Assembly: GCF_024298765.1 (NCBI RefSeq)
Contig: NZ_CP101220.1
Reading direction: 5' to 3' (one strand)
From: Escherichia coli
Lineage (GTDB): Bacteria > Pseudomonadota > Gammaproteobacteria > Enterobacterales > Enterobacteriaceae
Length of the DNA stretch: 2,337 bases
A program made the position numbers and the translations under genes. The notes beneath the pieces were generated by a model. That model did no database searches, was not told the DNA's origin, and saw nothing but the letters and a program-made list of their open reading frames with translations. Positions 1 to 2,337 of the stretch are shown here, piece after piece (within the stretch, counting starts at the first letter, position 1; every line of letters begins with the position of its first letter).

Positions 1-133
1 CGTCGAAAAGTTGCAGCGGAAAATGGGACAGGATGTGTATTCGTCATACCGCGAATACATTCGCTTGCATGAGAATACCTCCTGTCAGGGCAAGCCCCGA
101 CACCCCAAACGTGCAAAATGGAGAATCATTGCG

Positions 134-559
134 ATGACTAAAAATAAGCGTAGCGGTTCAGAAGTACGGCAGAGGACTAAGGTTATCACCCTTAGAGTAA
201 ATAACAGAATCGCAAACGAAATCAGACGGCGAGCGAAGAGCGAAGGGCTGACTATTTCAGAATATATAAGGACAACAAGCTTAAATAATGAAATAAAACA
301 GCGCGTTCCTTCCAGATATTTAGATGAATTAATCCAACTTGGTCGGATGCAGAAGAAATTATTTGATAAAGGGAAGAGACCGAAGGACAAAGAGTATCTG
401 GATGTGATGCATAAAATAATTTCACTTTGTGCTGAAATGAAAGAAGTAACACAGCGAATTTCTGATATATATAAAAAAATGGATTTAATAAAAGAAGAAA
501 TAAAAGCAATAAAAAAAATACATAAAAATAAATACCCAGGTTCCAACTTATTTAATTGA
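134..559 (+). CDS. mobC: MobC-family ribbon-helix-helix relaxosome accessory (plasmid mobilization) protein, 141 aa from ATG 134; same frame is open to window start (alternative starts TTG 11, ATG 23)
   Basis: ORF-track frame 11..559. GGAGA at 120-124 sits 9 nt before ATG 134. Translation contains RTKVITLRVNNRIANEIRRRAKSEGLTISEYIRTTSL, matching the MobC-type RHH pattern (basic N-terminus, beta-strand, then helices with a G-L-[ST]-x-S-E-Y-[IL]-R motif), followed by a Lys/Glu-rich probable coiled-coil tail. Family assignment is from motif recall, not a search. Confidence 0.55.
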   Translation: MTKNKRSGSEVRQRTKVITLRVNNRIANEIRRRAKSEGLTISEYIRTTSLNNEIKQRVPSRYLDELIQLGRMQKKLFDKGKRPKDKEYLDVMHKIISLCAEMKEVTQRISDIYKKMDLIKEEIKAIKKIHKNKYPGSNLFN

Positions 560-648: not shown

Positions 649-1068
649 TTAATCCGTTTTTTTCGGGGCTATCGTCACTGTTGAATCAATCCCTTCATTA
701 CTGTAAGTTGTTGTCCATACTATCTTTTGTACTTTCGCCCAATCAACTTTAACTGCGTATTTTTTATTAACCAAAAATTCATTTCTGGCTATTCTAGAAA
801 TTAAACATGACTCAATCAGTTGAGACACATTATTATTAAATGTTTGTGGTTTAATTGAATGTTCTGATAAAAACTTTTCTTTGGTTCTTGGTCCAAATGA
901 AACAACATTATCAGTATTCATATTAGCAAGCATGAACGTAAAAATTTTGTATTGCGTTGCTGATAGCCCTTTAACACGGCATAAATCACGGATATACAGC
1001 TTCACGAACTCCGGCTCTTCCAAAATTACGCCAGTTTTTTGATCTAAAAATTTCGCTCCCATTCTCAC
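649..1068 (-). CDS. Small winged-helix-like DNA-binding protein (139 aa); putative iteron-binding replication initiator or copy-control/origin-binding protein
   Basis: ORF-track ORF 649..1068 (-). SD-like GAGGTGAGA lies just upstream of the start on the minus strand; a second in-frame ATG at 1062 is a possible alternative start. Start codon is about 100 bp from the phased iteron array. Sequence pattern (LSATQYKIFTFMLANM ... FNNNVSQLIESCLISRIARNEF) resembles helix-turn-helix plus wing seen in Rep-initiator N-terminal domains. Function inferred from context; protein is short for a classical Rep. Confidence 0.5.
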   Translation of the reverse strand: MRMGAKFLDQKTGVILEEPEFVKLYIRDLCRVKGLSATQYKIFTFMLANMNTDNVVSFGPRTKEKFLSEHSIKPQTFNNNVSQLIESCLISRIARNEFLVNKKYAVKVDWAKVQKIVWTTTYSNEGIDSTVTIAPKKTD

Positions 1069-1267: not shown

Positions 1268-1363
1268 AGTTTGCCTCTAGGCCTTGTCACACCTGATTTT
1301 CCTATCTGTCTGTGAATCTATCTTAGATCTCGTGCGTAAGTGCACTATGCCAATACTGGTTCC

Positions 1364-1430
1364 CTTCCGCTTCCTCGCCCACTCGCGAGCCTAGCGGCTC
1401 GGTCGCTGGGGCTGCGGCGAGCGGTGCCAC
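1364..1430 (+). other. ColE1/pMB1-type origin-flanking conserved segment, probably a PriA-dependent primosome assembly site (n'-pas / single-strand initiation signal)
   Basis: Window CTTCCGCTTCCTCGCCCACT...GCTCGGTCG...CTGCGGCGAGCGGT versus remembered pBR322/pUC CTTCCGCTTCCTCGCTCACTGACTCGCTGCGCTCGGTCGTTCGGCTGCGGCGAGCGGTATCAGC. Exact blocks of 15 nt (1364-1378) and 14 nt (1412-1425) are shared. Contains hairpin CGAGCC-tagc-GGCTCG (1386-1401). Assignment of this pBR322 region to the pas is from memory. Confidence 0.55.
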
Positions 1431-1905
1431 CTCTCGCATATCGTTGACGATCCCGATTTGATCTCAGGCGATCGAGTCGCTGGCCACCGGTTAAACGCGC
1501 TCAAAGCCTCCCAGACGCACAAAACGCGGGTTAAATGCCCGTCAGGGCATGGAAGGCGCGAAAAACGCTTACAGAGGTTTTCAGAAGGTTAGGCGCGCCG
1601 ATACCCCTAACCAGGGGCTTTCAGGTCGCTAGGAACCGCGCCAGCCCCCTGCAAGGCCCATTTGCACGGAACAGACAGCCACTCGGTTGGTAGGTGGTCG
1701 TAGACCGTCGGTGTTACAGCGATGGGGGTCTGGGGTTCTCCCCAGACGGTTTCCGGTTGCGCTCAAGGCGCTGCCGGAACCGTGGCGGCTTCGATGGTGA
1801 AGGGTGAGCGCGTTTCCAAGAGGTTTTCCAGGCAAGCTATGACTGAACTGAACAGATTGAACGAGGAGGAAACGCGCTCAGACGCTTTGTAGCGCGCTTT
1901 TCTGT
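1431..1905. other. GC-rich, ORF-free, hairpin-dense segment; candidate ColE1-like RNA-primed origin/regulatory RNA region (RNA II preprimer and antisense RNA I analog), or another structured noncoding RNA
   Basis: Sharp rise in GC relative to flanking AT-rich genes. Only ORF is a 68-aa minus-strand Arg/Pro/Gly-rich one typical of GC-rich noncoding DNA. Hairpins seen: ATGCCC-gtca-GGGCAT (1535-1550), CCCCT-aacc-AGGGG (1604-1617), 8-bp stem 1728-1735/1740-1747 with loop TTCT, CCGG..GCGC-tcaag-GCGC..CCGG (1753-1777). Order of motifs loosely parallels pUC ori (e.g. GATACC followed by a CCAGG/CCTGG-type hairpin). No clean RNA II-like promoter was found. Confidence 0.35.
1868..1902 (+). terminator. 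Intrinsic-terminator-like hairpin with T-rich tail (stem CGCGCT 1873-1878 / AGCGCG 1891-1896, 12-nt loop, then CTTTTCT)
   Basis: Seen directly on the + strand at the 3' edge of the GC-rich block. Could be the terminator of an RNA I-like antisense RNA or of another + strand transcript. Loop is fairly large and the U-tract is interrupted. Confidence 0.35.
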
Positions 1906-2337
1906 GTCAGGCAAGTTTGTTGTGTCTTTTGCCTTTCAGGTTGTTAGCAGCTGGCGGAGCACTGCACGGGGATTAATGCTCCCATTGCTAGGATGAAATA
2001 AAGATTAGGAGCGAAGTTAAGTTATATTTTTAATATATAAACGCGATATCAATAACTCACATAGTTATATTTTATGCATATGCTACCATCTTGCTCTTTT
2101 GCCTCCTGCTCTCTGGACGAATCCCGCATTACCAACAGGCAATGGATTATATAACCAAGAAGATCTAATCTTTATTCCTCTAATAATCCACAAACGACAG
2201 ACAACAAAGACATCAATTAATTCGGTGTTATTTATTAAATAACAAGCAATAATTTTTAAAATCTGTGTAAATAATATTGAATGAAGCATCATTTTTTTGT
2301 ATCAGAAATACCAGGTTACGACGCGGTATTTTATTTT

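Follow-up and report, generated by a model that had tools for sequence, protein, structure and literature searches.

The window, that is, the whole stretch of 2,337 bp analysed here, is a complete circular plasmid of Escherichia coli and matches, end to end and at 100% identity, three E. coli plasmids of human and chicken origin (e.g. pSTEC2018_607-o). Only two genes, mobA and rep, are carried, and these are accompanied by iterons, a GC-rich block and an AT-rich stretch which runs across the ends of the record:

134-559, plus strand: mobA, encoding a NikA-like ribbon-helix-helix relaxosome accessory protein of 141 aa with a C-terminal extension
649-1068, minus strand: rep, encoding a 139-aa distant RepL-family initiator, annotated as hypothetical
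1138-1273: 22-bp iterons (CCGCTGAGCGGTATTT-type) upstream of rep, comprising repeat families D1, D2 and D9
1332-1990, minus strand: GC-rich non-coding hairpin block of about 650 bp
1990 across the record ends to 133: AT-rich non-coding stretch of 480 bp, holding the AT-rich block under study

MobA matches the Pfam NikA-like family (1e-15) and NCBIfam MobA (2e-27) and shows 47% identity to NikA of IncI1. Compared with the protein annotated as RepL in a sister plasmid, the 139-aa Rep is 24% identical (E 8e-12), and its 98%-identical counterpart elsewhere likewise carries a RepL annotation. No relaxase or NikB is encoded in cis, and the relaxase must come in trans; the plasmid belongs to a small relaxase-less family, the whole of which is typed as non-mobilizable by PLSDB/MOB-suite. 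A divergent backbone of the pF404-6 type (NZ_CP103475.1) carries this rep module too, at 98% identity, from which it follows that rep modules are exchanged between backbones. In strains STEC2018-607, B771 and GF4, two to three family members with a shared oriT-mobA-AT-block backbone and different rep modules are co-resident, and the shared backbone therefore does not cause incompatibility. A search of the whole window against Rfam (E ≤ 1) returned nothing but a spurious miRNA match on the iterons, with neither RNA I nor any other ColE1 family among the results; a ColE1-type RNA II/RNA I origin was ruled out on this basis, the likeness to ColE1 being limited to a 61-bp PAS-like segment. In the literature, nothing was found on this plasmid lineage or on its AT-rich block, and reports on pKL1, pBuzz, NTP16/pCERC7 and pHW126-like plasmids served as context only.

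The region upstream of mobA contains an origin of transfer, the elements of which are as follows:

14-115, minus strand: R64/IncI-type oriT, with the nick motif GGGACAGGATGTG at 25-37 and the nicked strand reading CATCCTG|TCCC
36-43/52-59: 8-bp oriT inverted repeat, 7-8 nt from the predicted nick
84-101: repeat-B-like GTCAGGGC/GCCCCGAC, within oriT

The assignment to this type of oriT followed from comparison with the IncI-gamma/K1 oriT, which revealed the nick-region motif, an inverted repeat some 8 nt away from the nick and, next to these, a nikA homologue. The nick motif, the position of the inverted repeat, the repeat-B-like element and a nikA homologue placed immediately downstream are likewise shared with R64, whereas the inverted repeat is shorter here (8 bp), nikB is absent, and IncI plasmids have no homologue of the AT-rich block on the leading side. 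By analogy with R64 and RP4, the nicked and transferred strand would be the minus strand of the window, and the AT-rich block would then lie in the leading region. In the record of the IncK2/Z conjugative plasmid pTMSA992 (NZ_KR905387.1), a member of the family is inserted with both junctions within the shared nick motif GGACAGGATGTG:

1600-1640 and 3930-3950 of pTMSA992: junctions, corresponding to the nick motif at 25-37 of the window

Junctions inside the nick motif are the outcome expected of relaxase-mediated recombination between two oriT sequences, and I-complex relaxases therefore act on this oriT in nature. A second cointegrate is presumably represented by NZ_KR905385.1.

Attention had been drawn to the AT-rich block by an earlier note, made from the letters of the sequence, which reported two short repeats in AT-rich DNA and proposed either a DNA-unwinding element or the promoter region of a minus-strand transcript entering the GC-rich block. 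The features concerned are the following:

2005-2080: AT-rich block as reported, 24% G+C
2020-2030, plus strand: first copy of the 11-mer AGTTATATTTT, within an invariant stretch
2063-2073, plus strand: second copy of the 11-mer, the first bases of which vary among relatives, about TTATATTTT alone being common
2052-2068: 6-bp inverted repeat ATAACT/AGTTAT, no more than chance would give and disrupted in most relatives

The direct repeat (repeat family D16), the inverted repeat ATAACT-cacat-AGTTAT and the AT-richness were all confirmed. When the 76-nt segment was shuffled 5000 times with its dinucleotides preserved, exact direct repeats of at least 11 nt arose in 0.4% of cases (p about 0.004, for a region chosen post hoc, this family being one of the plasmid's 22 repeat families), whereas hairpin-type inverted repeats of 6 bp arose in 34% (p about 0.34). 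The direct repeat is thus locally unusual, whereas the inverted repeat is expected by chance. Alignment of 17 distinct relatives, consisting of PLSDB relatives 84-100% identical to the window and seven metagenome contigs found by a core pattern, showed that the second copy of the 11-mer reads ATTTATATTTT, TTTGTATTTT or TGTTATATTTT in most of them. This copy thus differs between relatives, in most of which the inverted repeat is also disrupted, and both repeats are features of the window's own sub-lineage and not what selection preserves. A perfect 12-nt inverted repeat, AATAAAGATTAG/CTAATCTTTATT at 1997-2008/2165-2176 (I19), brackets the block with 156 nt between its arms; it was rejected as a functional bracket, since most relatives have it in imperfect form and compensatory changes are lacking.

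Conservation in the region follows a different pattern, in which three segments can be distinguished:

2011-2060: conserved part of the block, near-invariant in 16 close relatives
2085-2225: fast-evolving spacer, the most variable part of the region, of which the length is kept and the sequence is not; no conserved ORF
2229-2337: oriT-proximal block, near-invariant, on the leading side of the nick

Hardly any change is seen in GTTAAGTTATATTTTTAATATATAAACGCGATATCAATAACTCAC (2016-2060) among 16 distinct sequences, and the first copy of the 11-mer sits inside a near-invariant stretch of 46 bp (2015-2060) which is almost unchanged while the adjacent spacer varies. A distant lineage is formed by pF404-6 and four similar 2.18-kb plasmids, the MobA of which is 76% identical. 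Even there, the core TTATATTT-N3-ATATATAAACGCGATA persists next to some 160 bp of random-level identity (0.36, against 0.28 expected from composition); the core at 2011-2048 (GCGAAnTnAAnTTATATTT-N3-ATATATAAACGCGATA) keeps 84% identity across its 38 bp (pairwise E 7e-7), and the 20-nt bin 2027-2046 reaches 85%. A conserved non-coding island thus makes up the left part of the block, as seen across two deep lineages alone, an exact-pattern scan of metagenomes having yielded seven contigs of the same family and a MobA-based scan of species-representative genomes three matches, all of them close relatives.

The island does not behave as a gene or as a folded single strand. Frame-breaking 1-nt indels in the spacer (2085-2225) across the relatives leave no conserved ORF, and a 69-aa minus-strand and a 47-aa plus-strand spacer ORF were rejected as genes on account of these indels, the lack of family matches and an unconserved position in pF404-6. 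No annotation lies beneath the block in any record, whether among the 39 PLSDB records or the 45 of 5426 complete E. coli genomes that carry it. Folded as single-stranded DNA, the segment 1940-2240 was no better than its shuffles (z -0.96 for the minus strand and -0.43 for the plus strand), and RNAalifold on eight relatives gave a covariation term of -0.44 with no compensatory pairs in the block; a single-stranded DNA promoter or sso-type hairpin (Frpo, ssoA, M13 minus origin) was discarded for want of such a fold signal and covariation. A Xer (cer/dif-like) site was likewise discarded, as a dif-type pattern with a 6-bp centre was not matched even when 3 mismatches were allowed, such a site comprising a XerC arm, a centre of 6-8 bp and the XerD arm TTATGTTAAAT; the best resemblance by eye, at 2061-2085, falls in the variable part of the block.

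The position of the block relates it to the transfer module. Within PLSDB it is confined to 39 plasmids, and among 5426 E. coli genomes to 45, all of those examined carrying the same mobA lineage, and it occurs together with at least three different rep/iteron modules (the 139-aa Rep, RepL types of 165-181 aa and the rep module of pF404-6). The core and the nick motif are 340 or 341 bp apart in 21 of 21 sequences (2022 to 26 in the window, across the record ends), which amount to one independent comparison, between the two deep lineages, and several shallow ones; pF404-6 keeps this spacing despite an unrecognisable intervening sequence, and where sequence can be aligned, small indels offset one another. 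The block and the end of the GC-rich block, in contrast, are separated by a variable length (63, 110, 209/210, 246 or 379 bp), and the block is therefore positionally tied to oriT and not to the GC-rich block or the origin. In the one IncI-gamma/K1 plasmid inspected, nothing comparable lies 341 bp from the nick. Taken together, the block is a real and conserved non-coding cis element at a fixed distance from the nick, which probably belongs to the family's transfer module.

As no ORF, Rfam match, fold signal or covariation was found, recognition as duplex DNA is the remaining mode of action. The best explanation, which is advanced tentatively and falls somewhat short of probable, is that the block may be a site bound by protein as duplex DNA, possibly overlapping a weak promoter-operator, which would act together with the conserved oriT-proximal block; its exact role is a proposal drawn from sequence comparison. 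Candidates for the protein are MobA, RNA polymerase and nucleoid proteins, of which IHF is an example. Binding by MobA would use the RHH domain and the C-terminal region, which is perhaps helical and oligomerising, and binding would contribute to relaxosome architecture or to the control of transcription across oriT. Against a protein-binding element, GCGAWW-type half-sites, which would represent a shared MobA half-site, are not enriched, no k-mer of at least 9 nt is common to the block and the oriT-proximal region, and the conservation of the island could in principle come from a recombination patchwork.

It is also possible, if on balance unlikely, that the block is a distal part of the R64-type oriT, 341 bp from the nick, which is bound by the extended MobA or a host architectural protein, loops or wraps the leading-side DNA and is needed if I-complex relaxases are to be hijacked efficiently in trans. 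Protein-bound elements around transfer origins are already known. The TraK-binding curved region of RP4 and the TraM, TraY and IHF sites of F belong to extended oriT regions of MOBP/MOBF plasmids with accessory-protein sites and divergent promoters; they are AT-rich, protein-bound and situated on the leading side at about 50-250 bp from the nick, they serve relaxosome architecture and promoter control, and their binders are known. The AT-rich block differs from these in lying 341 bp from the nick, beyond a non-conserved spacer, and in that its binder is one which we only infer, the constraint on length over a non-conserved spacer being the one unusual aspect. If true, a length-constrained distal oriT element would represent an easily tested long-range relaxosome architecture which relies on a foreign relaxase; should the block turn out to be no more than a weak promoter or filler, the finding would be an ordinary one.

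The promoter readings depend in part on what the neighbouring GC-rich block does. Its segment 1365-1425 (61 bp) is 79% identical to a segment of ColE1 which we take to be the primosome-assembly (PAS) region. The part at 1332-1790 is common to more than 1500 plasmids, including the 1.5-kb pKL1-like and pMG828-1 plasmids, and all of these records are typed Col(MG828); the GC-rich block appears to be what this replicon type detects. Its left edge, CGTGCGTAAGTGCACTATGCC (1331-1358), recurs in pKL1-like, pMG828-1 and pF404-6 plasmids and bears what we presume to be a loose resemblance to XerC-arm or IncW nick-region sequences. A 13-bp stem, GAGCGCGTTTCC/GGAAACGCGCTC in 1805-1880 (about 280-350 in the relative), is kept in both sub-lineages around a wholly different loop of 38-50 nt. 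Fragments of the block adjoin the rep genes of IncX4 and other plasmids. Against shuffles, the minus strand folds with z -3.6 as DNA and -3.0 as RNA, compared with -1.1 for plus-strand RNA; the minus strand is the one transferred from oriT and would also be displaced if replication runs from the iterons to rep. In the pHW126-like plasmids (pIGMS31, pIGRK), a RepL-related initiator is accompanied by four iteron-like repeats, an adjacent ssi-like palindrome and orphan promoters without a downstream gene (bioRxiv 10.1101/2022.12.05.519187). These are, like the present family, small gammaproteobacterial plasmids with a RepL-related initiator and iterons, the kinship of the Rep proteins themselves being a putative one; their promoters lie inside the replication module, whereas the AT-rich block is tied to the oriT module. 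Taking the PAS-like segment, the rep-adjacent fragments, the folding of the minus strand and the palindrome of the pHW126-like plasmids into account, the GC-rich block is probably a single-strand initiation region, which neither needs nor excludes a promoter in the AT-rich block.

Three candidate sites within the AT-rich block bear on the remaining readings:

2032-2060, minus strand: candidate sigma-70 promoter GTGAGT-17-TATATT, with the -35 at 2060-2055, the -10 at 2037-2032 and a start near 2025
2043-2071, plus strand: candidate sigma-70 promoter GCGATA-17-TATATT, directed towards oriT and mobA, with an AT tract at 2019-2040 in the position of an UP element and a start near 2078
2047-2059, plus strand: IHF-like core TATCAATAACTCA, with one mismatch to WATCAANNNNTTR and an AT tract upstream

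The first of these would direct transcription leftward from near 2025 into the GC-rich block and possibly through the iterons into rep, the transcript being a primer, an origin-activating transcription or the product of a distal rep promoter. Such a minus-strand promoter is unlikely, although it keeps some standing. The site ranks fourth among the promoter-like sites of the plasmid in a rough PWM scan (8.5 bits) and its hexamers are unchanged in 16 close relatives, but it agrees with the consensus at 8 of 12 positions, a standard consensus scan (9/12 or better) found no sigma-70 promoter in the block, and the hexamers degrade to GTGCAT/TATATG in pF404-6 though the core is conserved. The succession of the AT-rich block, about 600 nt and the PAS-like element resembles the order P-RNAII, ori and PAS of ColE1, but neither a terminator nor Rfam RNA I or another family was found, and the position of the block follows oriT and not the GC-rich block. 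The same GC-rich block is entered by a minus-strand gene in pKL1-like and pMG828-1 plasmids. That the GC-rich block folds significantly as the minus strand alone would suit such a transcript, but this asymmetry is equally explained by a single-stranded DNA function on the transferred or displaced strand. Orphan promoters have been demonstrated experimentally in the replication modules of pHW126-like plasmids (bioRxiv 10.1101/2022.12.05.519187).

A promoter on the plus strand, with the AT tract as its UP element, would read rightward over the spacer and oriT and serve as a distal promoter of mobA, in a manner recalling the IncI nikA promoter, which is likewise upstream of the nick and gives transcripts that cross oriT. 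This is quite unlikely. The hexamers GCGATA-17-TATATT are present in most relatives, and the variable bases 2060-2065 fall in the would-be spacer, the length of which is fixed. The two plus-strand sites in the block rank ninth and fourteenth on the plasmid (PWM scan, 7.3-8.4 bits), with scores similar to that of the minus-strand site. Against this promoter, the -35 is weak, a leader of 390 nt would be required, and a closer candidate, TTGAAT-17-TATCAG, lies at 2277-2305. In pF404-6, a much stronger plus-strand site, TTCACA-17-TATCAT (11.9 bits), overlaps the core, but the hexamers are out of register between the two lineages, and much of the conserved sequence falls, by position, between the TTCACA and TATCAT hexamers, unlike what a simple promoter predicts. 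The best promoter-like site thus differs in strand and position between the close relatives and pF404-6.

It is similarly doubtful that the block has no function of its own and represents AT-rich filler kept by descent or a recombination patchwork. Short repeats and promoter-like and IHF-like matches are common in AT-rich DNA, and few independent lineages are represented; against this, the core forms an island between segments of random-level identity in pF404-6, a near-invariant stretch is kept while the flanks of the relatives vary, and the spacing to the nick is fixed. A site for DNA bending by IHF, through binding to TATCAATAACTCA and to the AT tract upstream of it, is very unlikely as the specific function: the one-mismatch core at 2047-2059 has the typical AT-rich element on its 5' side and is invariant in 16 relatives, but the plasmid has seven such sites where 4.25 would be expected, an excess without significance, and in pF404-6 the core is replaced by GTTATCATGCACA while the rest of the block is conserved.

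That the block is the DNA-unwinding element of a replication origin, as the earlier note had proposed, is highly improbable: the main predicted opening lies elsewhere, at 457-535, which would account for nearly all opening at physiological superhelicity (p 0.9-0.99 at sigma ≤ -0.055, as against p ≤ 0.09 for the block, which peaks at p = 0.09 at sigma -0.045, in a single-run Benham-type stress-opening calculation with a simplified model), the iterons at 1138-1273 are about 750 bp away across the GC-rich block, the block is retained with several rep modules and at variable distance from the GC-rich block, the sole DnaA-box-like site (2184-2192, one mismatch) is not conserved, and neither is the second copy of the 11-mer. 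The block does resemble unwinding elements and the 13-mers of oriC in its AT-richness, its low duplex stability (the second to third least stable segment by nearest-neighbour stability) and its short repeated motif (the AT-rich 11-mer in two copies), but differs in lying beside neither iterons nor DnaA boxes, in not being the predicted primary opening site and in its independence of the rep module. The first reading of the block is corrected in that the flagged repeats are not its conserved feature and the element is not an origin-unwinding one. The segment 457-535 is the 3' end of mobA, where a Lys/Glu/Ile-rich tail is encoded, and is the most AT-rich part of the plasmid.

The NTP16/pCERC7/pU302S group (Moran & Hall 2017), as outlined in the relevant portion of PMC9282650, combines an R64-like oriT with a NikA homologue that shares about 50% identity with NikA of R64, lacks NikB, is thought to be mobilised by a relaxase in trans and is described as ColE-like. 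Small enterobacterial plasmids with an R64-like oriT, a NikA homologue and no NikB are thus common to both, to judge from that portion, whereas the present family has RepL-type initiators and iterons, a different NikA in the form of the 141-aa MobA with its extension, and the AT-rich block, no counterpart of which is mentioned for the group in the same portion of PMC9282650. Small plasmids which lack a relaxase and rely on the transfer machinery of large conjugative ones occur commonly, and typing tools often score them as non-mobilizable; cis elements needed beyond a minimal oriT affect the prediction of mobility. In the pKL1-like and pMG828-1 plasmids (1.5-1.9 kb), two oriT-like sequences are present in inverse orientation:

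1-100 and 1380-1450 of pVR50I: two oriT-like sequences
610-680 and 785-870 of pMG828-1: two oriT-like sequences

One of the two is R64-like, and the other presumably resembles the bom region of ColE1/pBR322.
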